A DNA stretch of 12,317 bases from a virus. Taxonomy: Duplodnaviria > Heunggongvirae > Uroviricota > Caudoviricetes. This document shows, piece by piece, positions 1 to 12,317 of the stretch (within the stretch, counting starts at the first letter, position 1; each line of letters starts with the position of its first letter). A program made the position numbers and the translations under genes. The notes below the pieces were generated by a model, which saw nothing but the letters and a program-made list of their open reading frames with translations, searched no databases and was not told the origin of the DNA. The stretch spans positions 1 through 12,317 of the IMG/VR virus record IMGVR_UViG_2802429246_000010, one strand, 5' to 3'.

Positions 1-1632
1 ATGGTAACTCGGACAATGCAACAAAAGTATGATCGTGTTTTATCTGGCGAATCCCATCCATTCCCTGGCATATACGAGGCGGTTTCCGAACAACTCCTTT
101 TGCTCATCTTTAAGGCTCGTCAGCTATATCAGAATCCAGAATATCGCCCCTGGTTTGAAGAACAGCACAGAGTTCTCTCTGCATTACGTGCTAATACAGA
201 GCTCTTGAGAATATTTAGAGAACAAAGAAACGCGGAAGAACCAGAGCTTATTATTAAAGAATCTACATTACCCCTACTCACTAATTCTAATCTTACAGAT
301 GCGCTTAATATTATGTGCCATTTATACAATGGTTTTGATGAAGGAAATATCAGTCTGAAAACCTGGGGGGCGATGCAAGAGGTACAGACAACATCAACCT
401 TTATCAGCCCGGGACCGAGAACCTGGAAAACACCTGAACTGGCAAAGTTTGTAGGAGATGATTTATTTAATATTCTGACTGAATGTAAAGCCTGGAGTTC
501 ACCAATTCCAGCAGAAACCCGACAGGGCTATTGCCATCAGGATCTGTCTGTTGCACACTCCTGCACCTCAGAGTTACTGGCACACCTGAATCAATACCAT
601 GAAATTGATGAATCAGCAATACTTGCCAGAGTTATTGGTATGACGGTTAACGGATTCTACAAGAAAAATAATACAGACCTCCCAGAATGGCTATCCCCCT
701 TTAAAGAGGAACATAAAATATTCAGAGATTGTCTGGAGCAAAAGACCGAGGATGTAATCAGACTGAAAGAACAACTGTTGAAAACAGGACGTTCAGAATT
801 CGTGAATAATTTGTGTCGGGTCGCCAACTGGTATGAAATTAAGTCAATATACGATGAATATGTCCGTCTTTATGCCAATGAAATCATTGGTTGGTTCAAC
901 AAAACCATGGAATATTTTAAACCAACAGATTTTATCCGATATACATGGAAATTCGCAACAGTTACTCCAGGTAAAGAGACAGAAACCAAGCATACAACTG
1001 CATGGGAAAAGGATTATTGCCAGATAACTATACAACGTGATGAACTTCTGAGATTGATTCACACGAATACCCTTCAGGATGCAGTAATTTATCTTTGCCA
1101 TTGTCTGCAGAAGAAATACAAGAAATCATCCCAAAATGAGATAGAGTTTCCAGGAATAAAACCTCCGGCATCAGAGAGTGAAATTAATATAACAGATAGT
1201 TTTGAATTTTATTCTCTCCTGGAGCTCAGTAAAGATAATGAGAGACGGCTGGAAACATTTCAAAAATGGTATGAAAAAAATAAAGTTTTGTTAGAAAGTC
1301 ATAAACAAAAACGAACAGAGAAGATTGACGTTGCCGTACGACTTGTAGGGCTGAAAGCCTATGATCTGCATGAAGGGATTCCGGATAGTCCAAAACGAAA
1401 AGTTAAAGATGGCATAAATGAAGACATCAAAGCCGATACCAGTTTACGCCTGCCAAAGACAAATATAAGTGATACGTCGCTAAACCGTTATCGCCGCACT
1501 GTTAAGGAGATTATCAATAACGAAATCGACGCATTCCTGTTGGAACAGAAGAAAAAAAATAAAAGATTTCCCTACAGTGAAGATAGAGATGTGATTCGAC
1601 CTTTATGGGGAAAATGCCTGACCGGGCAGTAG
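1..1632 (+). CDS. hypothetical protein (543 aa), AT-rich accessory/cargo gene; ATG sits at position 1 so the true 5' end may lie beyond the window
   Basis: Uninterrupted 1632-nt ORF with coding-like amino-acid composition; noticeably more AT-rich than the rest of the window; followed by a hairpin terminator; no motif I can recognise by eye. Confidence 0.5.
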   Translation: MVTRTMQQKYDRVLSGESHPFPGIYEAVSEQLLLLIFKARQLYQNPEYRPWFEEQHRVLSALRANTELLRIFREQRNAEEPELIIKESTLPLLTNSNLTDALNIMCHLYNGFDEGNISLKTWGAMQEVQTTSTFISPGPRTWKTPELAKFVGDDLFNILTECKAWSSPIPAETRQGYCHQDLSVAHSCTSELLAHLNQYHEIDESAILARVIGMTVNGFYKKNNTDLPEWLSPFKEEHKIFRDCLEQKTEDVIRLKEQLLKTGRSEFVNNLCRVANWYEIKSIYDEYVRLYANEIIGWFNKTMEYFKPTDFIRYTWKFATVTPGKETETKHTTAWEKDYCQITIQRDELLRLIHTNTLQDAVIYLCHCLQKKYKKSSQNEIEFPGIKPPASESEINITDSFEFYSLLELSKDNERRLETFQKWYEKNKVLLESHKQKRTEKIDVAVRLVGLKAYDLHEGIPDSPKRKVKDGINEDIKADTSLRLPKTNISDTSLNRYRRTVKEIINNEIDAFLLEQKKKNKRFPYSEDRDVIRPLWGKCLTGQ

Positions 1633-1640
1633 ATCACTGA

Positions 1641-1676
1641 GGGGATAACAGCCCGGTTATCCCCTGTTTGTTCTGC
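1641..1676 (+). terminator. rho-independent terminator downstream of the 543-aa ORF
   Basis: 9-bp stem GGGGATAAC (1641-1649) / GTTATCCCC (1656-1664) with 6-nt loop, followed by TGTTTGTTCTGC. Confidence 0.5.
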
Positions 1677-1718
1677 TTCAGGTTGCCAGAGCTCTAGGAA
1701 CACGAGGCAATCGGCAAA

Positions 1719-2315
1719 TTATGCGGCTTTTCCATTAACAGATTCGGCCACAAGAACGACAGTGTGTTTGTTTCGCTCAGGATGTTCACTCCAGATTTCT
1801 GATTCCGGGATGCTTTCCCCGTCATAACTGATCCGTTCGCCATCAAACGGGTAATACCGTGCGGAATCAGTATCTAAAATAAACACCTTCAGATTCGTTG
1901 AACGACGCGCAATATGCTGCCAGAGAGCTTTTCCTCCTTCATATTGCTCGTTATCACTTAATAGTACAACGCCCGCTTTTGTGACTATCGTTTCATAAAC
2001 AAACGTTGCAAGACCAACATCGCGTACAGCTCCATCGACAACAATCCCTTCAATCTGAGCAACATCCTGTTCTTCCCAGAATTTCTGGACAAACACGCCT
2101 TCAAGTCGGGGACGACGCTGAAGCTCCAGAGTGGCAACAACCTTATGGCGAACATCACCATCAATAACAGAAGGTGCAGCTTCGATTACCGCAGCAAACG
2201 GAGTCTTTGGATCCCAGATGATCTGGTAAAGCACGCCCTGAATAGTTACTCCATCCAGTATCGAAAAACGACGGGCTACAGTAGCAGGGGAGTAAGACAT
2301 TGGAATTACAGCCAT
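1719..2315 (-). CDS. hypothetical protein (198 aa from ATG at 2313-2315; the track ORF extends to an upstream GTG at 2345)
   Basis: ATG at 2315 is preceded on the minus strand by AGAGGGGA about 9 nt upstream; coding-like composition; about 100 bp downstream of the integrase on the same strand; no recognisable domain. Confidence 0.5.
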   Translation of the reverse strand: MAVIPMSYSPATVARRFSILDGVTIQGVLYQIIWDPKTPFAAVIEAAPSVIDGDVRHKVVATLELQRRPRLEGVFVQKFWEEQDVAQIEGIVVDGAVRDVGLATFVYETIVTKAGVVLLSDNEQYEGGKALWQHIARRSTNLKVFILDTDSARYYPFDGERISYDGESIPESEIWSEHPERNKHTVVLVAESVNGKAA

Positions 2316-2444
2316 TTTAGAATCCCCTCTGAGTAATACAGGCACGAAAATTTACCTCAATAATTATAGTAAACAATACCAGAGCCAGGCGCATCAACAA
2401 TACTCATCAATTGTACTCAAGTCGTACAACGATCAGGAACGCCC

Positions 2445-3761
2445 TCACCTTCTACCAAACAGATTAACAACATTATTACCTGTCTGCTGTTGGTGGTTAT
2501 TAACCCGGTCCTCCCAGATCTCAAGTGCTCTGCGTTTTTCTGGCAAATAATCGTATCGATCATAATGTTTTGAACTGACATCGTTCAACGCATGATTTTG
2601 AATACGATCGCGGATTTCCTTACTGATTCCAGCTTCTCCCATTAACGTTTTACAGGTCCGACGTAAGTCACGTGCTGTAAAAATTTTAAAGTCAGGATTA
2701 CAAGCCCGGAAATACATGATAGCGCGAGCCAGACTGTCCGTACGAACCGGACGCTTACCATTAGTCGAAAGCGGGAAAATGTAAGGGCTCGATTTTTCTT
2801 TTGTTAACTCCTGCACACAAGATAATTCCTGTAATGCTGATTCAGTCAACGGTATCAAATGTTCTCGCTTATTTTTAGAGACATCCGCAGTCACCAGCAG
2901 CGTTTTTTGCTGAAAATCAACATCACACCACTGACTGGCGATCATTTCGAAGGGACGTTGCCCCCCGGTATAGATACAGAATCGGATCAAATGTTGCATC
3001 AATAATCCAACGTTGGTTGCTTCAGCAAAATGTTCCATTAGAAAACGCAACTCTTCGAGTGTCAGCCAGGTGTCACCGACTTTTTCAGCAGATGACTGTT
3101 TCGGTATCACTGATACCGGATTGGCCTCCAGCCCAAAAGTAATCCCTACACTTGTGTTCATCGGATCGTTATCAGCTTTCAGACCATAGTTAAATGCAGC
3201 CATCAGGTAAGAACGGATCCGGTTAGAGTGAACCACTGCACCGCGCTGAATGATCCCGGCCAGGATATGTTTAATCTGTCCGGAAGTCACATCTTTAGCT
3301 TTAGTCTCACGGGGGATCACTGTATAGCATTCATTTTCAAGGCGTTTCAGAACATCCTGCCATGTTCTCTTATTATCAATTTTCATTTTGTTAACATAAC
3401 CATGAATCAATGCTTCAAATGAGCCCTGTGATTGATGGAGTTGTATCCGCTGCTGTTCTGCAAGCTGTTGTCGCTCCAGTTCTGTCTGGGGATCCTTTCC
3501 TTCAATGAGCCAGGCACCATACTTTTTTGCCAGTTCATTCGCTGTAGCCAGTTTCATCTCAGGCCATATACCCAATTGAATGAATCTTTCTTTTTTCCCT
3601 TTTTCCACGTAATAGCGGAAATAGAAAATTTTGCTGCCAGAAGACTGAACTTTGATGCCAAGTCGTCCAGTGCCACGTTGAGAACTGTTGCTCCAGACAT
3701 AGAACGATGTCTTTTTTGCTTTCAATGCTCGGATAGCTGTTTCAGTTAGATTGACGGCCAT
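2445..3761 (-). CDS. int: site-specific tyrosine recombinase (phage integrase), P4-type with N-terminal arm-binding domain
   Basis: 438 aa; N-terminus (LTETAIRALK...GSKIFYFRYY...ERFIQLGIWPEMKLATA) fits the P4-integrase N-terminal domain pattern; C-terminus has the R...H..R...Y arrangement (ARDLRRT...HALND...HYDRYDY); AAGAGG RBS about 5 nt upstream of ATG at 3761; lies next to a tRNA-derived att core. Confidence 0.9.
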   Translation of the reverse strand: MAVNLTETAIRALKAKKTSFYVWSNSSQRGTGRLGIKVQSSGSKIFYFRYYVEKGKKERFIQLGIWPEMKLATANELAKKYGAWLIEGKDPQTELERQQLAEQQRIQLHQSQGSFEALIHGYVNKMKIDNKRTWQDVLKRLENECYTVIPRETKAKDVTSGQIKHILAGIIQRGAVVHSNRIRSYLMAAFNYGLKADNDPMNTSVGITFGLEANPVSVIPKQSSAEKVGDTWLTLEELRFLMEHFAEATNVGLLMQHLIRFCIYTGGQRPFEMIASQWCDVDFQQKTLLVTADVSKNKREHLIPLTESALQELSCVQELTKEKSSPYIFPLSTNGKRPVRTDSLARAIMYFRACNPDFKIFTARDLRRTCKTLMGEAGISKEIRDRIQNHALNDVSSKHYDRYDYLPEKRRALEIWEDRVNNHQQQTGNNVVNLFGRR

Positions 3762-3808
3762 AGAACCTCTTTTCTAAACCAGTAACAATCAAAATAACTC
3801 GTAAATTT

Positions 3809-3831
3809 GGGTCAGGTAATGGGTCAGGTAA
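3809..3831. promoter_or_regulatory. tandem direct repeat GGGTCAGGTAA x2 (candidate integrase arm-type or accessory-protein site) in the int upstream region
   Basis: Exact 11-bp copies at 3809-3819 and 3821-3831 separated by 1 nt, between the int start codon and the tRNA-derived core; followed by ACAATTA-type AT-rich repeats (3900-3940). Confidence 0.3.
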
Positions 3832-3957
3832 CGATCGTACAATGGAGAAAAAACGGAACCAAGCGGAAACAGAAGCAATTACATAATTACTTGATTATAA
3901 ACAATTAATAAAACAATTACGAACAAACCAAAACAATATAGAATGGACTTGCCTCAT

Positions 3958-4004
3958 GACTCATAATCGCTTGGTCGTTGGTTCAAACCCAACAGGGGCC
4001 ACCA
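3958..4004 (+). other. att core remnant: 47-nt 3' fragment of a tRNA-Ile(CAU)-like gene (anticodon loop through CCA), truncated at the 5' side
   Basis: GACTCATAATCGCTTGGTCGTTGGTTCAAACCCAACAGGGGCCACCA closely matches the 3' part of enterobacterial ileX/ileY-type tRNA as I recall it, with compensatory T-stem changes (GTTGG/CCAAC); the upstream 30 nt cannot form an acceptor or D arm, so this is not a complete tRNA. Confidence 0.65.
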
Positions 4005-4012
4005 TATCTATC

Positions 4013-4050
4013 AAGGGGTTACGTTAACAGCGTGACCCCTTCGTTTTTTC
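4013..4050 (+). terminator. rho-independent terminator immediately after the tRNA-derived core
   Basis: Stem AAGGGGT (4013-4019) / ACCCCTT (4035-4041), 15-nt loop, then CGTTTTTTC. Confidence 0.45.
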
Positions 4051-4330
4051 TAGGATACCTATAGGATACCGTGACAGAGTATAAGCAGGTATAAAAACAA
4101 CAAGTTACGCAACATCATACCTGTCATGAAACTTTAACTATCCGACATGATAGCTGGTCGATGATCACGGATAATCCGTTATGTGGATCCCCATATCGGC
4201 ATCAGACCCACCAGCGTGAAGCGTTTTTCATTTTTCGCGGGTATAAAAAATCGATGGGGCTGGCAGTCCGGAAGACGTCAGGTCACAGGGATTTGACCCG
4301 CCCCTCCCTGTGCATGAGCACAATAAGTAA

Positions 4331-4539
4331 CCGAAGGCGGAATTCCGCCCTCGGTACTCACATATGAGAAACGATATTTCTTCCACCGATACCCTTTATT
4401 TGGGTATCGCGAGTAAGCCCCAAAATCTGGGTGTTACTCTTACTACCCAAACTACGGGTAGTTTCCGTAATTTCATGGTCGAGTTGCAGATCTGCAACTC
4501 ACCCACCAGCGCAACGCTGAAAGCCAGTCAGTAAACTGG
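4331..4539. repeat. cluster of six inverted repeats/hairpins in non-coding DNA, including a perfect 20-bp palindrome at 4481-4500
   Basis: CCGAAGGCGG-AATT-CCGCCCTCGG (4331-4354); CGATACCC/GGGTATCG (4387-4409); ACTACCC/GGGTAGT (4442-4462); GAGTTGCAGATCTGCAACTC (4481-4500); CAGCG-CAA-CGCTG (4507-4519); GCCAGT/ACTGGC (4522-4539). No convincing ORF on either strand. Confidence 0.6.
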
Positions 4540-4560
4540 CTTCGGTCATTGTGCACTACG

Positions 4561-5103
4561 TTACTTGTCTTTATCCGGCTGAAACTTATCAGGCACATTT
4601 CCGGTAGTTTCCATCAGATAATCGGACAGCATTCGCGGGATGTTTTCATCAAGTTTTGTGCATGCGTTACAGGCTCTGACAACTTCTTTTTTCAGGCCAT
4701 CCAGCATGACGGGGGTCATCTGTGGGAAGCTCCTTTGCATAGTAAGCGGCAGGCTGTCCATGATTGATGAAATCTGACTCGCCAGTTTTGAAAGCGCGTA
4801 CATGCAAAACTCTGTATCAATCACGTCACCGCGATCGCGCTCGTTTTTAAGTTCCTGCGCCTCCGCCTGTGCTGTCAGTAATCTGATCCTGACTCGTAAG
4901 AGTTCATCATCATCAATCTCGCCTTTGTCGTTTGTAAGCTGGCTAATTGCATTGTTAACCCTATTGTCTATCACGCTGGCAACATCATAAAACGCCTCAC
5001 GGCCTTTACGTTCAACGGGAGTCACTCCCCACTTGTCGAATGCTGTAGCACTTACCCGGCAGCTTTGCGCCATGGTTTTTTTGTTCATCAGGTGCGATTT
5101 CAT
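4561..5103 (-). CDS. terminase small subunit, lambda Nu1-like (N-terminal winged-HTH cosB-binding type)
   Basis: 180 aa from ATG at 5103 (lambda Nu1 is 181 aa); collinear similarity to lambda Nu1 along the whole length, e.g. LTAQAEAQELKNERD..DTEFCMYALSKLASQISSIMDSLPLTMQRSFP...LDENIPRMLSDYLMETTG against lambda LTRAQADAQELKNARD..ETAFCTFVLSRIAGEIASILDGLPLSVQRRFP...LDELIPGLLSEYIEQSG; a lambda-like cos lies directly upstream. Start is ambiguous (ATG 5103 or ATG 5085). Confidence 0.8.
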   Translation of the reverse strand: MKSHLMNKKTMAQSCRVSATAFDKWGVTPVERKGREAFYDVASVIDNRVNNAISQLTNDKGEIDDDELLRVRIRLLTAQAEAQELKNERDRGDVIDTEFCMYALSKLASQISSIMDSLPLTMQRSFPQMTPVMLDGLKKEVVRACNACTKLDENIPRMLSDYLMETTGNVPDKFQPDKDK

Positions 5104-5109
5104 CAATAT

Positions 5110-5300
5110 CCCAACTTGGTCAAGGTTTCAGGTTGGTGTGTTGGTGTTATCTTTCCCTTTTTATTCATGGAGATAGAGCAAACAACAAAACCACCACCAC
5201 CACCCTGAAAAAGCTCATAAATAGCGAAAAACCGCGAGGTCGCCGCCCCGTAGCCTACCGGATCGCCGGAAAGGACCCGCCAGCCAGAACGGGCCCTAAT
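5110..5300 (-). other. lambda-type cohesive-end site (cos); cosN 12-nt overhang sequence at 5237-5248, diverged cosB-side region 5110-5214
   Basis: Minus strand reads GGGCGGCGACCTCGCGGTTTTTCGCTATTTATGA (plus 5215-5248), matching the lambda left end GGGCGGCGACCTCGCGGGTTTTCGCTATTTATGA at 33 of 34 positions including the full cohesive-end 12-mer; sequence then diverges from lambda before the Nu1-like start. Confidence 0.8.
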
Positions 5301-5304
5301 TTCA

Positions 5305-5688
5305 TCAACCAATCAACTTATAGCGACCATCCCGTGCATTGCGGCGTACACGCTCAATCTTGAGGCATAGCGCCGCATCTGGCTTTTTTGGGACAGGTAC
5401 GCGGCAATATTCAGAAGCTCGAGGAATATTGTTTATCCAGTCGATCACTTCGCTTAAATACCAGGCCTTACGCCCTTCCGTAACCTGTACGCGTTCGGGG
5501 AACTCTCCGCGAGCCTCAAGGTTTAGCAATGTGCGACGGCTAAGGGTAGTAAGTTCCATCACCTGATTCATATCAACAAGGCGTTCACTTAAACGCATTT
5601 TGTCAGCAATAGCCTTTAATTCCTCTACTGCTGGATCCGGATACATCATTTCGGCAATTGGCTTAAGGTCATTGTAATGATTCTGCAT
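5305..5688 (-). CDS. AlpA/Vis-family HTH DNA-binding protein (127 aa, with an N-terminal extension of about 30 aa)
   Basis: Core RLVDMNQVMELTTLSRRTLLNLEARGEFPERVQVTEGRKAWYLSEVIDWINN fits the AlpA pattern; AGGGGGA RBS 5-6 nt upstream of ATG at 5688; stop lies about 57 bp from cosN. Confidence 0.7.
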   Translation of the reverse strand: MQNHYNDLKPIAEMMYPDPAVEELKAIADKMRLSERLVDMNQVMELTTLSRRTLLNLEARGEFPERVQVTEGRKAWYLSEVIDWINNIPRASEYCRVPVPKKPDAALCLKIERVRRNARDGRYKLIG

Positions 5689-5699
5689 TGTATCCCCCT

Positions 5700-6041
5700 T
5701 TACACACGAGCCAGCGGCTGAACAGAAATACCTGAGCCAACAAACGCGGCAACCTTTGCCGACAGTTCTTTTACAGACTCAGGCCAGTTCAGAGCATCAA
5801 CATTTAAAACACCTGTCTTATAAACCTGTGCCTGTGTTTTTTTCGCTGTGTCGATTTGTACAGCGGAAACATAAACCGCTTTGCCTGCGCTCGTTCCATC
5901 CCATACCACTAGCGCACCAGTTGCATCTTCCTGCATCAGTGGCGTAAACGCAGGTATTACCCCTTTATTGGCTGAAAATATCCCCAGCGTAGTAACCAGT
6001 GCTTCAGTGCCAGACATGAGTTCAGTGTAATGAGTAGCCAT
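5700..6041 (-). CDS. head decoration protein, lambda gpD-like
   Basis: 113 aa; TPLMQEDATGALVVWDGTSAGKAVYVSAVQIDTAKKTQAQVYKTGVLNVDALNWPE...AFVGSGISV aligns with lambda gpD [55 protein letters not shown]...AFAGTAISIV; AAGGGGGAG RBS overlaps the stop of the upstream capsid gene. Confidence 0.8.
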   Translation of the reverse strand: MATHYTELMSGTEALVTTLGIFSANKGVIPAFTPLMQEDATGALVVWDGTSAGKAVYVSAVQIDTAKKTQAQVYKTGVLNVDALNWPESVKELSAKVAAFVGSGISVQPLARV

Positions 6042-6050
6042 TGCTCCCCC

Positions 6051-7097
6051 TTAGCCAATGCGAACGGTAACAAAACGATTGATGCGGGCCGGTATTGGCT
6101 GTGGTGCTGAATGTGTCTGCACATATTCAATAGCCGGATCACCAGGCACAATATAGTTTTTCGGTGCAAGTTCGGCTTTAGTCAGCCCCATCCGAATTAG
6201 CTCCGGATCCTGAATACCGCCATAAGCGACAATCCCCTGAAGAGCCGTATTGCCAAGCACCATCAAATCAGGATCAAGGAAATATTTTTCAGTTCCGTCC
6301 TCGTCGGTATAACGCCCGCTGTAAACAACAATCGCAACATCGCCCATATACCCTTTAAAACTCACCGAATCACCAAGGTCTTTAAGGGCCGTTTCCAGTT
6401 CGGAATTAGAACCACGACGGGTATCCAGAGCCTCTTTTATCGCTCTGAATGAACGGTATTTCTTCCATACATTACCGCCCATAATGATGATATTAGTGAC
6501 GCCCTCACTAAATTCTGCGTAGCTCTCAATATCATCATTTGGATCAAAAGTTTCTTTATCCTTACCTGACCACTCAGCACCGCCAGACTGCGTGATAATA
6601 TTTTGTGGTTTTATATTCCAGTCCAGTTCATAACGTTCAATACCATCGCCCTCAATGATATTTTTCCCCGTTGTGATTGCCTGAACAGCAAGCCATTCAA
6701 TACGTGCACGTATAGCTTTAGCCTGATTTACAATCGCCTGTTTAACTTTAATATTACGCGCCCCAAAAGCATTGTATTGTTCAGGTGATACACCAGCAGG
6801 GCGCACAGCTAACTTATTTGGATCAATGCTGCTTTTCGGTTTCATATAGCCAGGGCGAATTGTTTTTGATTCGTATCCCTCATCTCGTGAAACTTTACTG
6901 CCCACCATAGGAGAGCAAAACGCCGCGATCGGGATATTTGGATCGTCGATCGTATCAAGAATAATGTCTCTCGATTCAAACATTACCGAGCGAGTGAAAA
7001 ACAAACTGGTAAACAACGCATTTAATTTTTTTTGCACATCTTCAGCATTAGCCACCTGCACAAGCTGTGTAGGCGAATATAAATCAACCATACTCAT
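6051..7097 (-). CDS. major capsid protein, lambda gpE-like (start at ATG 7097 or 7091; track ORF extends to 7178)
   Basis: Strong collinear similarity to lambda gpE, e.g. ITQSGGAEWSGKDKETFDPNDDIESYA...YRSFRAIKEALDTRRGSNSELETALKDLGDSVSFKGYMGDVAIVVYSG...MVLGNT...GDPA against lambda ITQSGGTEWSKRDKSTYDPTDDIEAYA...FRSFKAVKEKLDTRRGSNSELETAVKDLGKAVSYKGMYGDVAIVVYSG...MVLGNT...GDPA; N-terminus MSMVDLYSPTQL parallels lambda MSMYTTAQLL; AAAGAGG RBS just upstream. Confidence 0.85.
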   Translation of the reverse strand: MSMVDLYSPTQLVQVANAEDVQKKLNALFTSLFFTRSVMFESRDIILDTIDDPNIPIAAFCSPMVGSKVSRDEGYESKTIRPGYMKPKSSIDPNKLAVRPAGVSPEQYNAFGARNIKVKQAIVNQAKAIRARIEWLAVQAITTGKNIIEGDGIERYELDWNIKPQNIITQSGGAEWSGKDKETFDPNDDIESYAEFSEGVTNIIIMGGNVWKKYRSFRAIKEALDTRRGSNSELETALKDLGDSVSFKGYMGDVAIVVYSGRYTDEDGTEKYFLDPDLMVLGNTALQGIVAYGGIQDPELIRMGLTKAELAPKNYIVPGDPAIEYVQTHSAPQPIPARINRFVTVRIG

Positions 7098-7262
7098 CCT
7101 CTTTACATTCATTACAAATAATTGTGAATATATTCTATTACCGATGTCTGCTATGCGAATACATGCAACCAAGTGCAATGTTGTATAAAATATGCCGTGA
7201 CAACTTCAGTGCTGATAATTCGTGTTAATGTATTTACTTCCTTTGGTCGGGATTTATGTAGC

Positions 7263-7302
7263 ATGCCGGAAAATCTATTTTTTTCCGGCATCTTTTTGTT
7301 TG
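7263..7302 (+). terminator. strong hairpin plus T-tract (terminator-like, plus-strand orientation) upstream of the capsid gene
   Basis: 11-bp stem ATGCCGGAAAA (7263-7273) / TTTTCCGGCAT (7281-7291), 7-nt loop, then CTTTTTGTTTG. Orientation is antisense to the surrounding minus-strand genes, so its function is uncertain. Confidence 0.35.
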
Positions 7303-7375
7303 CAGAATTTAAAACGGTATATTATCGCCGTACGGATCATCATTCCCCGACTGTTGTTTTGCCCTGTTCAGTGCG

Positions 7376-7732
7376 TCAGTGGCCTGCCCCTGCTGGCCTT
7401 TTTTTGCCGCCCGGTCGCGCCGTTCGCGCACTGATTACGCTGTCTGCGATAACCTGCCAGCCCTGCCGCGTTTCGCCGTTCTGGCCTGTCCACTGGCTTA
7501 CCTGCATGTTACCCGCCACGCTCACCAGTTCGCCTTTGTGGTGTTTTGCCAGTGCGTCGGCCTGTCTGCCAAACGCCAGGACGGATAACCACATCGTCGC
7601 CGTTCCGTCATCTGCCTGGCTGCACGGAAGGGGGACCGCCATACTAGCCATCGCCATTTGTGTACCCTTGCTGGTGGTCTTTAACTGCGGGTCAGCCACC
7701 AGCCGTCCGTAAGCCGCTATCTGTGCTGTCAT
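7376..7732 (-). CDS. single-stranded-DNA-binding-like OB-fold protein (118 aa) with a basic C-terminal tail
   Basis: Pattern YGRLVADPQL...TMWLSVLAFGRQADALAKHHKGELVSVAGNMQVSQWTGQNGETRQGWQVIADSV parallels E. coli SSB (VGNLGQDPEV...[52 protein letters not shown]); GGAGAG RBS; ATGA start/stop overlap with the upstream gene. Confidence 0.5.
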   Translation of the reverse strand: MTAQIAAYGRLVADPQLKTTSKGTQMAMASMAVPLPCSQADDGTATMWLSVLAFGRQADALAKHHKGELVSVAGNMQVSQWTGQNGETRQGWQVIADSVISARTARPGGKKRPAGAGH

Positions 7733-7971
7733 GCTGTCTGCTCTCCGGTTTTAACGTTGATGGTTGTTACCTGTTCCGCTTCGGCAATCTCCCGTTCTGT
7801 CATCGTGGCAAAGTTTGCAGCTGCCGTTGTCATGAATGCGCTAATCAGTTCGGGATGTGCTTTCGCATATCCTTCCCCGGCGTTGCGGTCGATGATTTTT
7901 ATCGCCACTCTCAGCCAGTGCTCTGTAAGGTCAATAGCGCGGTAGTGTGGTTGTTTGCGGTTTGCCTTCAT
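7729..7971 (-). CDS. hypothetical protein (80 aa)
   Basis: ORF whose stop overlaps the start of the SSB-like gene (ATGA); coding-like composition; weak RBS; first gene after the iteron origin. Confidence 0.5.
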   Translation of the reverse strand: MKANRKQPHYRAIDLTEHWLRVAIKIIDRNAGEGYAKAHPELISAFMTTAAANFATMTEREIAEAEQVTTINVKTGEQTA

Positions 7972-8011
7972 AGTTCAGATCTCAATTTTTCGTATATATA
8001 TACAAAACAGT

Positions 8012-8334
8012 GCGGGTTATGCGGGTTAGCGGGTTAGCGGGTTATCTTCGCTTGCTAAGTATTTTTTATTCATTAATATCAATACATTACAAAATTAACT
8101 GTTTACTGTTTAGCCGTGGCGTAACCCGCAAAATGCTCAAAATAACCCGCAAACGGGGTTTTTTCTGCGGGTTACGCGTGGCTGTTTGCTGTCACTTCCT
8201 GTTATTCATCTGCGGGTTATAATCGCACTTTTGTGGGTTATAACTGCCGTTTTGCGGGTTACGTGCGGGTTATTGATTTCCTTTTTATTCATGCAGTTAA
8301 TGCACTTATACACAGAGTAACCCACATAACCCGC
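8012..8334. repeat. iteron-type replication origin: about 13 copies of GCGGGTTA (both orientations) flanking an AT-rich unwinding stretch
   Basis: Four tandem copies at 8012-8044; reverse copies TAACCCGC at 8122-8129, 8143-8150, 8327-8334; forward copies at 8167-8174, 8212-8219, 8254-8261, 8265-8272; variants GTGGGTTA (8233-8240) and TAACCCAC (8318-8325); AT-rich segment 8050-8110; located immediately downstream of the replication gene. Confidence 0.75.
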
Positions 8335-8357
8335 AACTTTTCACCTCACACAGGGGG

Positions 8358-10481
8358 TTAATCTTCTGCCTCAGGCTGGAACATCAGCACGTAAAAAACA
8401 TGCTGCTTCCCCCCAATTTTGCCGAGAGCCTTTTTCTTGTAACGGCGATCGTTACCCGCTTCCAGCATTCCGGCAGCACTCAACGCGCGGGCAAAGTGGG
8501 ACGGGTTAAATCCCTGTGCGATCTCCCCCTCAAACACATGAGGAAACGTGTAAAAACGGAACTCATCATCTTCATTTCTGATACTCCCCTTTCTGTATCC
8601 GGCAAGGTCTTTAATCGGTAAATCACGTTCATCACTGTTTGGGTAAGGAAGGTATCGACTGAACCCGAACGACGACAAAAACGCCTCAGCCTGTTCAACC
8701 ATCTGTTTAAATTCCCTGTTACCCGTGCCGAACTCCTTCACCCAGGCATTAAAGTTATGCTGTATTGCGTCCCGGCATTCCTGCGCGGCCCAGCCAGTTA
8801 CATGACCGGAAAGCACAAGCGCGGCCTCCAGTATGGCGAAACGCTCACCCACGCGGTGGACCTGCTCGCCGTAGCTCTCCGGTATCAGGTTGCGCCACCG
8901 TTCGCGGCATTCCCTTACCGTATCCTTTGCCTCCTGCTGGTGGCCTGCCAGCCATTTAACCCACTCACGACCCGCTGCCCCGTGATTTTCTGTCCAGGCA
9001 TCCTTTAACGCGTCTGCGTGCGCCTTTCCGGTGCTGTATTCGTGAAAGTGCGTGGCTTTTTCCATCGGAACGTTAAGCAGGCGGACAAGCTGCCCCGCTT
9101 TGACTTTTATCCCCTCCGTTTTGAGGAATGTCTCAACGTCCATTTCTCCGGTGCTGATTGCCACCGTGCGCCAGTGTTTTATCTCCCGGTTGCCGCCGTC
9201 CTTCGCCCCCTGTAATTTCCCGGAACCGTTAAACAACGTATAGGCTGACGTGGACACCTCCCGCGCGTTTCCGGCCTGGCCTATTTCATCCAGGGGTAAC
9301 AGCCCGTCGTTGTGCGCCTCTGCCTCGTTAGCGATACCTAACGCTGTGCCGTACCAGGTCAGCCGTTGTGCGTCCGGCTCTCCCCATAAACTTGATGCGA
9401 TGTTCTGCGTGGTGGTTTTCCCTGCCGATGACTGTTCGAAAAGATGTACCCCGAAGCCGTCAGCACCAACAAGGCCAATCAAAGGTGCTGCCAGTGACGT
9501 GGCAACACCCAGCATCATGGACGGATTGCCACCAGCCAGCCGCGCCACGCAGTCGCGCCAGCCCTCCGACGTACCCGCAACCGAATAGCCATTAACAGTG
9601 GCACTTTTTCCGGTAAACAGGATCGGTTTTTCAGAATCACCAATGATTGAGCCGTCCGGCATGATATACGCGCCAAAATGCCAGCCCGTTGTTGTGCTTA
9701 GCTGCCATTCCTCATGGCTTCCGCTTAACTGCATCCAGTCAGCCAGGATAGCCCTGTATTTGCCGTTTGTTGTCACGTTCAGCCCGTGATCTTTAAGCAA
9801 CCGCCAGCCGTCACGGTCGCCAATGCCACCACACGGGATCGCCATTGTGATGACTTCATGGTTTGCTAATTTTTTCCAGCGCATCACGCGGTAATGCTCT
9901 TTACCGATCGTCCCTGTTCCCAGTAGTTCAAGCGGAGAACATAACCACGTCTCAGGCCGGATAATTTCGCCTGACTGCTTATCCACTTTGGGCGTTACCC
10001 AGAAAACACCATCGACGCGACTTTCAACGCGGGGCTTTAATTCATCATCCTGATAGCATGGCTCTTTTTTCTTTACAGGCAGTTCAACTACCTTTTTCTT
10101 TTCCGCCTGCTCTGCCCGTTCACGTTCCAGATATTCACGCCAGTTCTCCCGTTTCTGGCTGTGCATTCCTTCAGGGTAATAATCAGCATCCCTGACACCT
10201 GCCGCTGCCAGTTTCTGCCCGATGGTATTAACAAGCCCCGGACGCAATAACCCCGCCTGATAGAGACGCACGCGATAGCGTCCGTCCGGTACGATTTGCA
10301 GGTTGTCCAGTTCGGCAAGTTGTTGCTCTCCAAGCCAGACAGGAGGCACGTTATCGCCAGCCAGTCGCCCGTCCTGTTCCTGCCACTGCTTCGCATGTGC
10401 CCACGCATCACTACCCGCAAAAATGATGACTTCCGTCATTTTGTCACGTGGCTGGTGTTTTAAATTTGGCGCTTTTTTCAT
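8358..10481 (-). CDS. replication initiator, primase/helicase-like P-loop NTPase (707 aa from ATG at 10481)
   Basis: Large ORF with Walker A-like SSAGKTT and Walker B-like LLPLDEIG motifs; GGAGAGAG RBS upstream of ATG at 10481; start overlaps the stop of the upstream gene (ATGA); cognate iterons immediately downstream. Family assignment is by context and motifs, not by confirmed homology. Confidence 0.8.
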   Translation of the reverse strand: MKKAPNLKHQPRDKMTEVIIFAGSDAWAHAKQWQEQDGRLAGDNVPPVWLGEQQLAELDNLQIVPDGRYRVRLYQAGLLRPGLVNTIGQKLAAAGVRDADYYPEGMHSQKRENWREYLERERAEQAEKKKVVELPVKKKEPCYQDDELKPRVESRVDGVFWVTPKVDKQSGEIIRPETWLCSPLELLGTGTIGKEHYRVMRWKKLANHEVITMAIPCGGIGDRDGWRLLKDHGLNVTTNGKYRAILADWMQLSGSHEEWQLSTTTGWHFGAYIMPDGSIIGDSEKPILFTGKSATVNGYSVAGTSEGWRDCVARLAGGNPSMMLGVATSLAAPLIGLVGADGFGVHLFEQSSAGKTTTQNIASSLWGEPDAQRLTWYGTALGIANEAEAHNDGLLPLDEIGQAGNAREVSTSAYTLFNGSGKLQGAKDGGNREIKHWRTVAISTGEMDVETFLKTEGIKVKAGQLVRLLNVPMEKATHFHEYSTGKAHADALKDAWTENHGAAGREWVKWLAGHQQEAKDTVRECRERWRNLIPESYGEQVHRVGERFAILEAALVLSGHVTGWAAQECRDAIQHNFNAWVKEFGTGNREFKQMVEQAEAFLSSFGFSRYLPYPNSDERDLPIKDLAGYRKGSIRNEDDEFRFYTFPHVFEGEIAQGFNPSHFARALSAAGMLEAGNDRRYKKKALGKIGGKQHVFYVLMFQPEAED

Positions 10482-10777
10482 TTCTGCTCTCTCCACGCGG
10501 CAATCATGTTTTTCAGTTCCTGTAGTTTTTTATCCACATTCACACGTGACACATGGTTATTTCTGGAAAGCGGGATTTCCCGCCTGAATCTGCTAATAAA
10601 GATCTCCACGTTCAGCGAACTATGAAATGAATAGCCATCACGAATAAAATACACACGGTCAAACATTATCGATTTTACTGTTACTCTGTTGCCGTTCTTA
10701 TCCCGATAAATAGCGCCGGGGATAATTTTGGGATGTGCATAACCGCTGGCAGTCAAGCCAGATAAATACGTTCTCAT
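10478..10777 (-). CDS. hypothetical protein (99 aa), translationally coupled to the replication gene
   Basis: ATG at 10777 with GGGGA upstream; stop overlaps the primase start codon. Confidence 0.55.
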   Translation of the reverse strand: MRTYLSGLTASGYAHPKIIPGAIYRDKNGNRVTVKSIMFDRVYFIRDGYSFHSSLNVEIFISRFRREIPLSRNNHVSRVNVDKKLQELKNMIAAWREQK

Positions 10778-10783
10778 GATTAT

Positions 10784-11104
10784 TTATCCCCGATTTGAAT
10801 CAGTATTCGCTTTCTTTATGGCATTTAATGCATCTGTGGCATTTTCAATGGTGCACCGTAACGAAATATCAAAATGTCCAAGCATTGCCAGTAACAAACC
10901 GATATTACCCATATCAATGCGCATGGCCTTTTCGTCATAGTCCTCATTTTCTGACGCATGCCACATCAGGCTACCAATTGACGCAACGGCCATTGATATA
11001 TTGTCAGTCGCCCCATCCGCAGCGGAATAAACCTTTTTAGCAATATCATGCTCACAGTTAAAATGCGGATTAATCAGGTACTGGTAATTTGACATATCAG
11101 GCAT
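10784..11104 (-). CDS. hypothetical protein (106 aa)
   Basis: ATG at 11104 with AGGGGG RBS 7 nt upstream; coding-like composition; start overlaps the end of the upstream small gene. Confidence 0.6.
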   Translation of the reverse strand: MPDMSNYQYLINPHFNCEHDIAKKVYSAADGATDNISMAVASIGSLMWHASENEDYDEKAMRIDMGNIGLLLAMLGHFDISLRCTIENATDALNAIKKANTDSNRG

Positions 11105-11300
11105 GGCACACCCCCTGACGAATACGGGCGGCGAATACCATCACGCAGCCAGCCGGGGATTGCTGGCGTGCTTCCTGTTCGCTGGTGGCCACGATGGTAA
11201 TCACACGCGGTTTTGCGGCGCTCAGGGCGATAAAACGCCAGGCGAATTTATTCAGGTTGTGCGAATCCCGCCCTTGCGGGTGTATGGTATGATTTCTCAT
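11097..11300 (-). CDS. small protein (67 aa), possibly Icd-like (P4-type host cell division inhibitor family); first gene of the leftward operon
   Basis: ATG at 11300 with GAGG 6 nt upstream; MRNHTIHPQGRDSHNLNKFAWRFIALSAAKPRVITIVATSEQEARQQSPAGCVMVFAARIRQGVCHA; the FAWRF...EAR...FAAR pattern recalls Icd-like proteins (from memory, unverified). It is the only coding-like stretch of the otherwise implausible 334-aa track ORF. Confidence 0.45.
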   Translation of the reverse strand: MRNHTIHPQGRDSHNLNKFAWRFIALSAAKPRVITIVATSEQEARQQSPAGCVMVFAARIRQGVCHA

Positions 11301-11337
11301 AGCTACCTCGATACTCTCGTTATCGTTGGTGGTTAGA

Positions 11338-11383
11338 AGCCCTGCGAGTGGTAACGACACTTGCGGGGCTTTGTTTTTTGTTG
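11338..11383 (+). terminator. hairpin plus T-tract (terminator-like, plus-strand orientation) in the divergent regulatory region
   Basis: 11-bp stem AGCCCTGCGAG (11338-11348) / CTTGCGGGGCT (11360-11370) with two G-U pairs, 11-nt loop, followed by TTGTTTTTTGTTG. Confidence 0.3.
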
Positions 11384-11396
11384 CACTTACTGTTAA

Positions 11397-11440
11397 TGTA
11401 CGTACGTAATATTGATGATAATAGGAGTTACGTACGTACA
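11397..11440. promoter_or_regulatory. twin operator: two copies of the self-complementary 10-mer TACGTACGTA (13-bp inverted repeats TGTACGTACGTAA / TTACGTACGTACA) 30 bp apart
   Basis: Copies at 11399-11408 and 11429-11438; the second lies between an AGGAG (11423-11427) and the ATG of the RHH gene; a TAATAT -10-like hexamer sits between the two copies. Confidence 0.5.
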
Positions 11441-11631
11441 TGTCAACATTAAAGCGGGATAAATCACCACGCGGCGAGGGATGGTCGCCGACATTCCAGA
11501 TACGAATTAGCAAAGAACTACGCCAGCAAGTAAACGAGGCAGCAACCGCCGATGGCCTAACCCTCGGCAATTGGTTTAAAGAATTAGCTCGTGCCGAACT
11601 AAAGCGACGTGGCATTGAACCTAAAGGCTGA
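11440..11631 (+). CDS. ribbon-helix-helix (CopG/Arc-like) DNA-binding regulator (63 aa)
   Basis: FQIRISKELRQQVNEAATADGLTLGNWFKELARAEL fits a beta-strand/helix/helix RHH pattern; the gene begins directly after the palindromic operators and is divergent from the replication operon. Confidence 0.55.
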   Translation: MSTLKRDKSPRGEGWSPTFQIRISKELRQQVNEAATADGLTLGNWFKELARAELKRRGIEPKG

Positions 11632-11634
11632 TGT

Positions 11635-11760
11635 ATGACTGAAAAGCAGACCGATAACAAACTTTCTCTACCAGAGAATAAACCAGCAGGCTTCTTACCA
11701 AGAAAAATCCTTGATGAGATCAAACGCCGCCAGCGGCGCAAGGCCAAAGAGCTGGAGTAA
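11635..11760 (+). CDS. small basic ORF (41 aa), not in the supplied track
   Basis: ATG 4 nt after the RHH stop with AAGG upstream; MTEKQTDNKLSLPENKPAGFLPRKILDEIKRRQRRKAKELE; plausible but too short to judge by composition. Confidence 0.3.
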   Translation: MTEKQTDNKLSLPENKPAGFLPRKILDEIKRRQRRKAKELE

Positions 11761-11817
11761 CCATCACCAGCGCCGTGGTGCGGTGAACTGTGGCGCACAG
11801 GGTTACAGGTATCTACG

Positions 11818-11997
11818 ATGACTGACAAATCATTAAAGAAATTATCCTCATCCAAGAAAAAACAACGCAAAAATGCGGTAAACGAACATGAACCGGAGAG
11901 ATTCGCACCATGTGCGTTTATCCTTGAGAAGTACCTTAAAGAGTATTCTAGGAAAATACGCTCATTGCAGGCATGGCAGCGAATCGAGCCAGACTGA
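11818..11997 (+). CDS. small basic ORF (59 aa), not in the supplied track
   Basis: ATG at 11818; MTDKSLKKLSSSKKKQRKNAVNEHEPERFAPCAFILEKYLKEYSRKIRSLQAWQRIEPD; N-terminus resembles the 41-aa ORF (MT-D/E-K); weak RBS. Confidence 0.25.
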   Translation: MTDKSLKKLSSSKKKQRKNAVNEHEPERFAPCAFILEKYLKEYSRKIRSLQAWQRIEPD

Positions 11998-12107
11998 TAG
12001 CATTGCCCACCAGCCAACAACCTGGTATTCTGGATATGCTCAAGTTTAGTGTTATGCCACTGGCGGCCCTCTGCGGTCGCCTTTGTTTTATGTGCCATCA
12101 CTCCCCC

Positions 12108-12317
12108 TTACACCGTCTGCGTTCTGCGAGTGGATGCAAGATAAGCATCGAGATCAGTGCGCATATACAGCACTTTGCGCCCCAGCTTATGGAAAGGGAT
12201 TTTTACCTTGCCAGTACAGGCCCAGTTCGCCAGCGTTTGATTGTTAACGCCAAGGTAGGCAGCAGCTTCAGCACGTGTAAGGCGGTCAGTTGATAAATCA
12301 GATTTCTTTAAATTCAT
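12108..12317 (-). CDS. excisionase/AlpA-family HTH DNA-binding protein (69 aa; start codon at the window edge, so it may extend upstream)
   Basis: LTRAEAAAYLGVNNQTLANW...GKVKIPFHKLGRKVLYMRTDLDAYLA matches the excisionase-type HTH pattern; position and orientation suggest an int-alpA-type pair with an integrase beyond the window edge. Confidence 0.7.
   Translation of the reverse strand: MNLKKSDLSTDRLTRAEAAAYLGVNNQTLANWACTGKVKIPFHKLGRKVLYMRTDLDAYLASTRRTQTV

Follow-up and report, generated by a model that had tools for sequence, protein, structure and literature searches.

The 12,317-nucleotide stretch considered here (the window) comprises positions 1 to 12,317 of the IMG/VR record IMGVR_UViG_2802429246_000010, a virus of the Caudoviricetes. 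Its minus strand holds every gene between 4561 and 11104, among them homologues of the lambda capsid protein E and decoration protein D, called E′ and D′ below, and directly after them a gene for an AlpA-family regulator, AlpA2. A preliminary description, made from the nucleotide sequence of the window, had read these three genes as a capsid, decoration and AlpA-like set in which the lambda order is inverted, and had suggested that a helper-responsive promoter may lie in front of them. The 6051–7097 region is the late (capsid plus packaging) module of a Gram-negative phage-inducible chromosomal island (PICI) of the EcCICFT073 family, a satellite of about 10.8 kb. The family assignment rests on the layout, the size, the published descriptions of PICIs and the finding of the same E-then-D order in EcCICFT073; the organisation of Gram-negative PICIs has been published (PMC6092414, PMC10111431, PMC10085698).

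All satellite genes are on the minus strand and follow each other in one direction as int-alpA-DUF927 primase-ori-orf80-ssb-E′-D′-alpA-cos-terS (Table 1). A capsid-morphogenesis gene and a small-terminase/Rpp gene, which de Sousa et al. count among the core components of PICIs, come after the replication module, with Phage_cap_E, HDPD and Phage_Nu1 all downstream of ssb. Pfam scans of the open reading frames (ORFs) of the window found no tail, lysis, portal or large-terminase genes, and the genes of capsid-forming PICIs (TerL, portal, prohead protease, head-tail connectors) were absent from the ORFs of the window and of the closest genome, L001. No portal, protease or FI gene flanks the E′-D′ pair, and homologues of C, Nu3 and FI are not adjacent to it; the local order ssb-E′-D′-alpA does not match the lambdoid order C/Nu3-D-E-FI. 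For a putative helper-dependent induction, replication and high-frequency transfer of the element, the lambda-type cosN and the relatives embedded in lambdoid prophages are the only support, and an indirect one.

Table 1. Features of the window, in order of position.
Feature	Position	Strand	Basis or remarks
Second tyrosine integrase	2445–3761	-	Opens a neighbouring, different island directly past the tRNA fragment
3′ fragment of a CAU-anticodon tRNA (Ile2/Met-like), ending GGGGCCACCA	3955–4005	+	Marks the right boundary of the satellite
Nu1-like small terminase homologue, 181 aa, last satellite gene	4561–5106	-	Pfam Phage_Nu1 1e-22
cosN / left cohesive end, lambda-like, GGGCGGCGACCTCGCGGTTTTTCGCTATTTATGA	5215–5248	-	33/34 bases as lambda bases 1–34
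AlpA2, AlpA-family winged helix-turn-helix protein, 127 aa	5305–5688	-	Pfam Phage_AlpA 1.4e-8, residues 36–85
D′ decoration homologue (lambda D / phage 21 SHP-type), 113 aa	5700–6041	-	Pfam HDPD 2.3e-15
E′ major capsid homologue (lambda E-type, HK97-fold)	6051–7097, probable start ATG 7091 (346 aa)	-	Pfam, lambda E and PDB matches
Candidate -10, TAGAAT 7137–7132	7132–7140, within TAATAGAAT	-	Promoter scan match; invariant T7140, T7137, A7136, A7133, T7132
Three direct repeats, putative operator	7154–7178	-	TTGCAC 7178–7173, TTGCAT 7168–7163, TTCGCA 7159–7154; spacings 10 and 9 nt
Conserved TTTTATACA box, directly upstream of the repeats	7181–7189	-	Invariant T7189, A7186, A7184 in alignment A3
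11-bp stem-loop, ATGCCGGAAAA/TTTTCCGGCAT	7263–7291	-	18 nt past the ancestral ssb stop; -16.2 kcal/mol, z=-2.97
ssb, frameshifted at an A7 run (7399–7405)	7309–7732	-	Pfam SSB 2.8e-16 (ORF 7376–7732); marked 'frameshifted' in RefSeq
orf80, small conserved ORF, translationally coupled to ssb	7729–7971	-	79–84% identical to orf81/83 of L008, L022, L023
Putative replication origin spacer, 386 bp	7972–8357		After the primase gene; repeated TGCGGGTTACG units at 8163–8193 and 8250–8280; several hairpins
DUF927 primase-helicase	8358–10496	-	Pfam DUF927 3.7e-47
Early AlpA/HTH_17 regulator	12108–12317	-	HTH_17 match 1.2e-11

Identity, order and age of the capsid genes

The ORF at 6051–7178 on the minus strand matches Phage_cap_E at 3.6e-41 over positions 4–327 of the 329-position profile, with 141.7 bits against a cut-off of 22.9. 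E′ is 42% identical to lambda E over 348 amino acids, its full length, and among solved structures it matches PDB 3BQW at 2e-122 and lambda gpE (7VI9) at 1e-76. The 3BQW entry is a solved structure of a satellite-type capsid protein, which we take to be from CFT073, the search output not stating the organism. D′ scores 57.2 bits against the HDPD cut-off of 29.1, is 40% identical to lambda D over 78 amino acids, and matches the solved structures 1TD0/1TD3 at 2.8e-16 and lambda gpD at 1.3e-12. For all three proteins, E′, D′ and AlpA2, the Pfam score exceeds the curated cut-off by a wide margin, and the assignments are not due to chance; all three identities proposed in the preliminary description were thus borne out. 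The tight coupling that it noted is also present: D′ begins 9 nt after E′ and AlpA2 11 nt after D′, with Shine-Dalgarno sequences of their own (GGGGGAG and AGGGGGA). The capsid gene placed at 6051–7097 stands, with a change of start codon. ATG 7091 is likelier than ATG 7097, because GAGG (7101–7098) abuts the latter, relatives start MPDLY, which aligns with MVDLY, and the RefSeq gene is 1041 nt long.

The order of the two genes was compared in 25 satellite loci (L001, L003–L006 and L008–L027, excluding lambda and the helper parts of CFT073), their diversity having been gathered by exact-protein look-ups. These loci span Escherichia, Kluyvera, Superficieibacter, Cedecea, Kosakonia, Serratia, Edwardsiella, Salmonella, Lelliottia and metagenomic contigs, about ten genera, and E precedes D in all 25. 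In lambda D (5747–6079) precedes E (6135–7160), as the preliminary description had stated, and the same holds for the myovirus record L002 and for all seven phage records common to the E′ and D′ searches. It holds too for the helper prophages within the satellite loci themselves (L005, L006, L017, L018, L024); those in L005, L006, L017 and L024 show the canonical C/Nu3-D-E-FI order. Both orders are seen side by side where the satellite is embedded in its helper (L005, L006, L022, L027): the helper genes C, D and the 5′ part of E are followed by the satellite, from int to E′-D′-alpA-terS, and then by the 3′ part of the helper E gene and FI. The E-before-D arrangement is therefore a fixed order of the satellite lineage, unusual when set against phages and typical among satellites. 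What the preliminary description overlooked is that this is the published norm for Gram-negative PICIs, EcCICFT073 having c1499 followed by c1500 (PMC6092414). The inversion is a signature of the lineage and a possible aid for recognising satellites.

Two relatives extend the observation on gene order. In the Lelliottia locus L021 (9001–11752) E and D are followed by an S49 protease resembling lambda C, all co-oriented, which gives E-D-C, the full reverse of lambda C-D-E; a simple circular permutation cannot yield such an order. The 463-residue protein P0005 from a Logan contig has Phage_cap_E and HDPD in a single chain, an apparent E′-D′ fusion or stop-codon loss that is consistent with the E-then-D order.

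E′ proteins are 55–99% identical among satellites and 40–49% identical to any helper E, that of their own helper included; the corresponding figures for D′ are 48–73% among satellites and 35–50% to helper D. A search of phage records found none with more than 44% identity to E′. Against other genera, six in all, the ratio of nonsynonymous to synonymous substitution (dN/dS) is about 0.02–0.08 for E′ and 0.07–0.18 for D′. Since dN is low and synonymous sites are saturated across genera, E′ and D′ are functional genes and not debris, an old and separate satellite pair under strong purifying selection. The possibility that E′ co-evolves with the E protein of its own helper was rejected, with essentially no signal: identity is 46–47% to the own helper and 44% to lambda.

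The spacer upstream of E′

An AT-rich region upstream of the capsid gene had been described, and GC content is indeed 0.39 over 7001–7400 compared to 0.42–0.59 in the flanks. It had been taken to extend from 7098 to 7375. When one A is removed from the A7 run in ssb, a full 140-residue SSB with a tail of the canonical ...DIPF type, here ...GDNIPF, is reconstructed, and 7309–7375 is then the out-of-frame C-terminal tail of ssb (...DDPYGDNIPF) and not intergenic. The true spacer upstream of E′ is therefore 7098–7308, and only that part of the earlier interval can be kept.

A hairpin lies just beyond the ancestral end of ssb. Read on the coding strand (7291–7263), it follows an A-run but leads into no U-run, and the terminator scan scores it as a terminator of the plus strand. 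All relatives have a hairpin at this position, in several with the same odd polarity and in others as a canonical or bidirectional terminator; each relative thus has one or the other structure ahead of its capsid unit. The hairpin at 7263–7291 probably marks the end of the replication unit, if in a weak or non-canonical manner.

An alignment of the spacers of the window element and seven relatives, from six genera, contains a single conserved block, 35–100 nt upstream of the start codon. It consists of TTTATACA, three direct repeats and TGnTAGnAT. Invariant columns make up 16 of 58 in the block and 2 of 141 upstream of it (Fisher p=5e-8), and they cluster on TTTATA, on the three repeats and on TGnTAnnAT. 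In this last element the invariant positions coincide exactly with the ones that characterise an extended -10. The third repeat, TTCGCA, doubles as a -35-like hexamer 16 nt from the -10, and the -10/-35 pair found by the promoter scan is this TTCGCA/TAGAAT pair. In other genera about one helical turn is inserted between the third repeat and the -10, and the phase is kept. Winged-helix proteins of the Xis/AlpA type multimerise along direct repeats. The conserved block fits a regulated sigma-70 promoter with an operator for a protein of this kind, as far as can be judged from the pattern of conservation.

Several searches of the region gave negative results. When the satellite was searched for direct repeats, no other copy of the operator repeats was found. 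Nothing in 7098–7308 qualifies as a LexA box (CTGT-N8-ACAG, up to 1 mismatch), and no promoter-proximal terminator that Q could override was found in the spacer. An Rfam scan of the whole window gave no family at the gathering score and thus no known riboswitch or small RNA for the E′ spacer or for the 3958–4560 tail.

The satellites fall into two architectures. In type A (the window, L001, L003–6, L015/16, L019, L022, L023, L025, L027) the AlpA gene stands right after D′, a position it keeps in all type A relatives, and there is no ORF before E′. In type B (EcCICFT073/L024, L008–14, L017/18, L021, L026) a 68–90-residue ORF is coupled to E′ and there is no AlpA after D′. The two features are mutually exclusive. 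In most loci the upstream motif tracks the architecture: where AlpA is present there are direct repeats, and where the small ORF is present there is a palindrome that overlaps the -35. Most type B upstream regions have two terminators, a palindrome ATTGCA-N5-TGCAAT over the -35 and a near-consensus TATAAT or TAAAAT; the two terminators, of canonical form, lie between ssb or perC and the capsid unit and are followed by a near-consensus TTGCnC-16-TATAAT.

The operator type and the operon-encoded regulator vary as a pair, and mainly for this reason the operon's own AlpA2 is the most likely candidate for the binder of the repeats in type A, and may be an autoregulator. The region upstream of the early alpA gene has no TTGCAY and carries a different repeat, AATAGCTGGCTA, which argues weakly against a direct action of early AlpA on the E′ spacer. 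Control of the E′ unit by a satellite-encoded regulator appears more likely than control by a helper factor.

Some further features of type B regions were observed. The small ORF (MAEEKKGGVSVYISSDIVEALKER...) overlaps the capsid start codon in L008–L014, L017, L018, L021, L024 and L026, and is absent from the window type; it has no Pfam match. At L024 380–445 (CFT073), L008 8700–8770 and L026 3690–3780 the two terminators, the palindrome over the -35 (here ATTGCn-N5-TGCAAT) and TATAAT are followed in the leader by a perfect inverted repeat, CTGG-N8-CCAG, and a T-run. The inverted repeat occurs in type B relatives only, and its spacing, CTG-N10-CAG, is that of a LexA box. It could be a LexA-like box or, with the T-run, a promoter-proximal terminator (attenuator), and either would echo known modes of satellite or phage late-gene control. 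No description of these leader elements was found in the literature.

Transcription of the late genes

In the reading favoured here, E′-D′-AlpA2 would be transcribed mainly from its own sigma-70 promoter, made up of TTCGCA (7159–7154), a 16-nt spacer and TAGAAT (7137–7132) and placed just downstream of a hairpin that would end the replication genes. Transcription would start near 7125 and produce a leader of about 30 nt. The three helically phased TTGCAY repeats, which overlap and precede the -35, would be the operator of a multimerising winged-helix protein, most likely AlpA2 from the same operon, and the result would be positive autoregulation. A helper signal would act on early AlpA, this would lead to replication and to read-through or derepression, and the late operon would follow, with no direct dependence on a helper late activator. 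For the model as a whole, namely an own promoter, operator control of the AlpA2 type and expression of the late module through the satellite's cascade, we estimate a probability of about 0.55. The helper would more plausibly exert its influence at one remove, by inducing early alpA, an activation that is documented (PMC6092414).

A number of observations weigh against this reading. In the relatives the extended -10 reads TGnTAGCAT, and where they have TG the window element carries TA. The promoter scan is not enriched over shuffled sequences, with 3 matches compared to 6.3 expected by chance, and is uninformative alone; nor is TTGCAY-N4-TTGCAY, with mismatches, rarer than chance (7 matches, 5.8 expected), so that the repeat pattern is informative through its conservation only. 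In the type A relatives L019, L025 and L027 the repeats are degenerate or different. Across different replication modules orf80-ssb-E′-D′ has been inherited as one block, which suggests that the module boundary is at ori and not at E′. Finally, no U-tract follows the hairpin on the coding strand, so that transcripts running in from the upstream genes activated by AlpA could account for most of the expression.

The last of these points leads to the strongest alternative, which has no separate promoter. The three genes would be the distal part of a long rightward transcript from the AlpA-activated early promoter, and the block upstream of E′ would have another use, for instance as a site for packaging, replication or a nucleoid protein. 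It would agree with the description of Gram-negative PICIs as unidirectionally transcribed, with AlpA activating downstream genes (PMC6092414), and it draws on the polarity of the hairpin, the inheritance of orf80-ssb-E′-D′ as a unit and the unenriched promoter scan. It does not account well for invariant positions that coincide with those of an extended -10 and whose distance from the start codon is a plausible one. In type B, moreover, two canonical terminators stand before the capsid unit and are followed by TTGCnC-16-TATAAT, and L019, L025 and L027, the type A relatives with altered repeats, have canonical or bidirectional terminators just upstream. We consider transcription by read-through alone possible but rather unlikely. 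The proposal of the preliminary description that the capsid gene heads its own unit is plausible and partly supported; it has the hairpin after ssb and the promoter-like block in its favour, and the lack of a U-tract, the orf80-ssb-E-D block and possible read-through to its disadvantage.

A spacer promoter that is switched on directly by a late regulator of the helper phage, which is closest to the helper-responsive promoter proposed before, has a Gram-positive precedent. The packaging operon of Staphylococcus aureus pathogenicity islands (SaPIs) responds to LexA and to helper late activators. Lambdoid helpers control their late genes by Q antitermination, loaded at the helpers' own promoter, and are not known to have a trans-activator. 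A lambda-style Q-dependent late operon, as had been foreseen, is not available to the element, which has none. Helper late transcription could read into the embedded relatives L005, L006, L022 and L027 (Mageeney et al., PMC10111431), and the inverted repeat and T-run after the -10 in type B recall a pR′/tR′-type antitermination target. The window element, in contrast, is not embedded in a prophage, and 7098–7308 has neither a promoter-proximal terminator nor a LexA box. The late promoter of EcCICFT073 has no convincing similarity to the region after the Q gene of the helper; a comparison with the helper prophage, including the region after quuD, gave only one 18/19 match, in sieB, which is probably fortuitous. 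With lambdoid helpers relying on Q antitermination rather than on a trans-acting late activator, and with repeats that point to a satellite binder of the AlpA/Xis type, direct activation by the helper is improbable, and this part of the earlier proposal is not upheld.

That E′ and D′ are inert leftovers of the head module of a degraded lambdoid prophage is very improbable: deletion of the EcCICFT073 homologues has no phenotype and the adjacent ssb is frameshifted, but dN/dS is far below 1 with saturated synonymous sites in six genera, the pair is intact in every one of the 25 satellite loci, its neighbours include no portal, protease or FI gene, all phages examined have the two genes in the opposite order, and identity to phage E is at most 44%.

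Possible function and relation to known systems

In EcCICFT073, c1499 is reported to be the capsid protein and c1500 the protein of head decoration (Fillol-Salom et al. 2018, PMC6092414). Deletion of either in this element, the one relative tested, changed neither lambda interference nor transfer, and EcCICFT073 DNA is packaged at phage size (PMC6092414); both results count against an assembly role for the pair. In CFT073 (L024) the 68-residue ORF, capsid gene, decoration gene, c1501 and rppA follow in this order, and the helper prophage 45 kb away has the protease, D, E and FI genes. The window element resembles EcCICFT073 in having int, alpA, replication genes, a late zone with capsid then decoration, cos and a Nu1-related protein. 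Its capsid protein is of the same satellite-specific family, but is only 56% identical to c1499. EcCICFT073 differs in its 68-residue ORF coupled before the capsid gene, its palindromic operator over the -35, its TATAAT, and a leader that contains an inverted repeat and a T-run; no AlpA gene follows D in it, and it has a 144-residue RppA where the window has a 181-residue full-length Nu1 homologue. We rejected c1501 as a counterpart of AlpA2, for it has no similarity to it and no Pfam domain.

The closest relatives of the late module in the window are in helper-embedded PICIs such as 11capE (Mageeney et al. 2023, PMC10111431). The E′ of L022 is 99% identical to that of the window, and L005, L006 and L027 are similar; these elements share the E′-D′-AlpA-cos-terS order and the upstream block. 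They sit inside the helper E gene and are open to helper late read-in, whereas the window element lies at a chromosomal tRNA-like att site beside another island. Lambda D and E (shp and gene 7 in phage 21) are homologous proteins with the same folds, and lambda has the same type of cosN and the related Nu1 gene. Its gene order is the reverse of that in the window, where W, B, C/Nu3, FI and FII do not flank the pair, there is no Q-dependent late operon, and identity is 40–49%. SaPIbov5 Ccm (PMC5052747, PMC8569155) is likewise a satellite homologue of a helper capsid protein of HK97 fold, in a cos-packaged satellite. It redirects capsid size and blocks the helper, neither of which was shown by the EcCICFT073 homologue (PMC6092414), has no sequence relationship to E′ and lacks a decoration partner. 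Capsid-forming PICIs (EcCIEDL933; bioRxiv 10.1101/2022.09.08.507074) have their own capsid protein and the same int, alpA and rep types as classical PICIs. Beyond this they have genes for TerL, portal, protease, HNH and head-tail connectors, none of which is in the window, and form small capsids of their own.

The retention of a cognate shell and cement pair under strong constraint, to which L021 adds a C-like protease, suggests that E′ may form lattice surfaces to which D′ binds, rather than act as an occasional poison subunit. More speculatively, E′ and D′ would assemble into, or co-assemble with, shells built on the portal, scaffold and protease of the helper. A genuine assembly role for the pair is possible but unproven. 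At its fullest, the idea would be of a self-regulated "half capsid-forming" module, whose shell and cement proteins are made from an AlpA2-controlled promoter and placed on helper portal, scaffold and protease to yield satellite-specific shells, possibly of lower triangulation (T) number; this we hold to be doubtful. If it were true, such elements would lie between classical and capsid-forming PICIs in both evolution and function. It would explain the long purifying selection on E′ and D′, their 40–49% identity to every helper E and the C-like protease in L021, and the null phenotype in EcCICFT073 would reflect the helpers and laboratory conditions tested.

Capsid and decoration homologues are carried by most Gram-negative PICIs and are strongly conserved, with a capsid gene in 21 of 29 reference elements, yet their deletion in a model element had no measurable effect. 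Knowledge of when and how E′ and D′ are expressed would be a first step to the condition under which the pair matters. Elements of this kind have been described before, as have their E′ and D′ genes and the order of these. What is added here is modest, namely the conserved putative promoter/operator block (7132–7189) and the two co-varying regulatory architectures, which together offer a concrete handle on the unexplained function of PICI capsid genes.

Packaging, replication and boundaries of the element

The cosN site lies between the AlpA-like and the Nu1-like gene. A terminator call by the scan at 5215–5248 was rejected, the sequence being that of a lambda-type cosN. From the position of cosN it follows that the packaged linear form would have E′-D′-alpA at its right end and terS at its left end. 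The Nu1-like protein is 37% identical to residues 3–180 of lambda Nu1 and had no match among solved chains in the PDB, RppC included. Rpp (redirecting phage packaging) proteins are defined by a length of 144–153 residues, a relationship to RppA/B/C and binding to the small terminase (TerS) of the helper. The Nu1-like protein, with 181 residues, may instead serve as a TerS of the satellite itself.

The segment 4500–7800 is 100% identical to E. coli A36 and is present to at least 80% in 263 of 5,426 complete E. coli genomes; the late module is carried by 263–365 of them. In A36 the genes follow as integrase, helix-turn-helix (HTH) regulator, small genes, DUF927 primase, orf80, ssb, capsid, decoration, HTH and small terminase. 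Similarity to other genomes starts at window position 3958, the satellite boundary, and the size of about 10.8 kb was obtained by counting from there to the end of the integrase gene and falls within the range of about 10–15 kb that characterises PICIs of the EcCICFT073 type. The integrase gene is outside the window; in L001 it is at 20662–22083, next but one to the regulator and beside nfeF. The window element is not a helper-embedded PICI, for it is flanked by the tRNA-like att fragment and the second integrase island, with no prophage around it. Among complete E. coli genomes, A36 alone was found to have the satellite and the second island in tandem. Neither the window nor L001 has a tRNA gene according to ARAGORN, and the tRNA-like sequence near 3955–4000 is a 3′ fragment only. 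Between the Nu1-like gene and this fragment, about 600 bp (3958–4560) are without a convincing ORF and are conserved with the satellite elsewhere.

The spacer of 386 bp that follows the primase gene probably serves as the origin of replication. Related satellites swap replication modules at this spacer and retain orf80-ssb-E′-D′. orf80 has no Pfam match and accompanies ssb-E′-D′ in both architectures. The homopolymer in ssb is A7 in the window, A8 in L023, which has a different replication module, and AATAAA, in frame, in L022. It could be a slippage-prone run that acts through mutational on/off switching or through transcriptional slippage.

Three to four direct AATAGCTGGCTA repeats lie outside the window, at about 19811–19960 of L001, upstream of the early HTH/alpA gene, and L004 has an analogous set of ATTAGCATGCTA repeats; both are candidate AlpA, excisionase or integrase arm sites. 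In the window, 5153–5180, between cosN and the Nu1-like start and in the position of lambda cosB, is 82% identical over 28 nt to 8277–8304 in the putative origin (TTCCCTTTTTATTCATGGAGATAGAGCA and TTTCCTTTTTATTCATGCAGTTAATGCA, respectively), a match that could reflect a shared host-factor site or chance.

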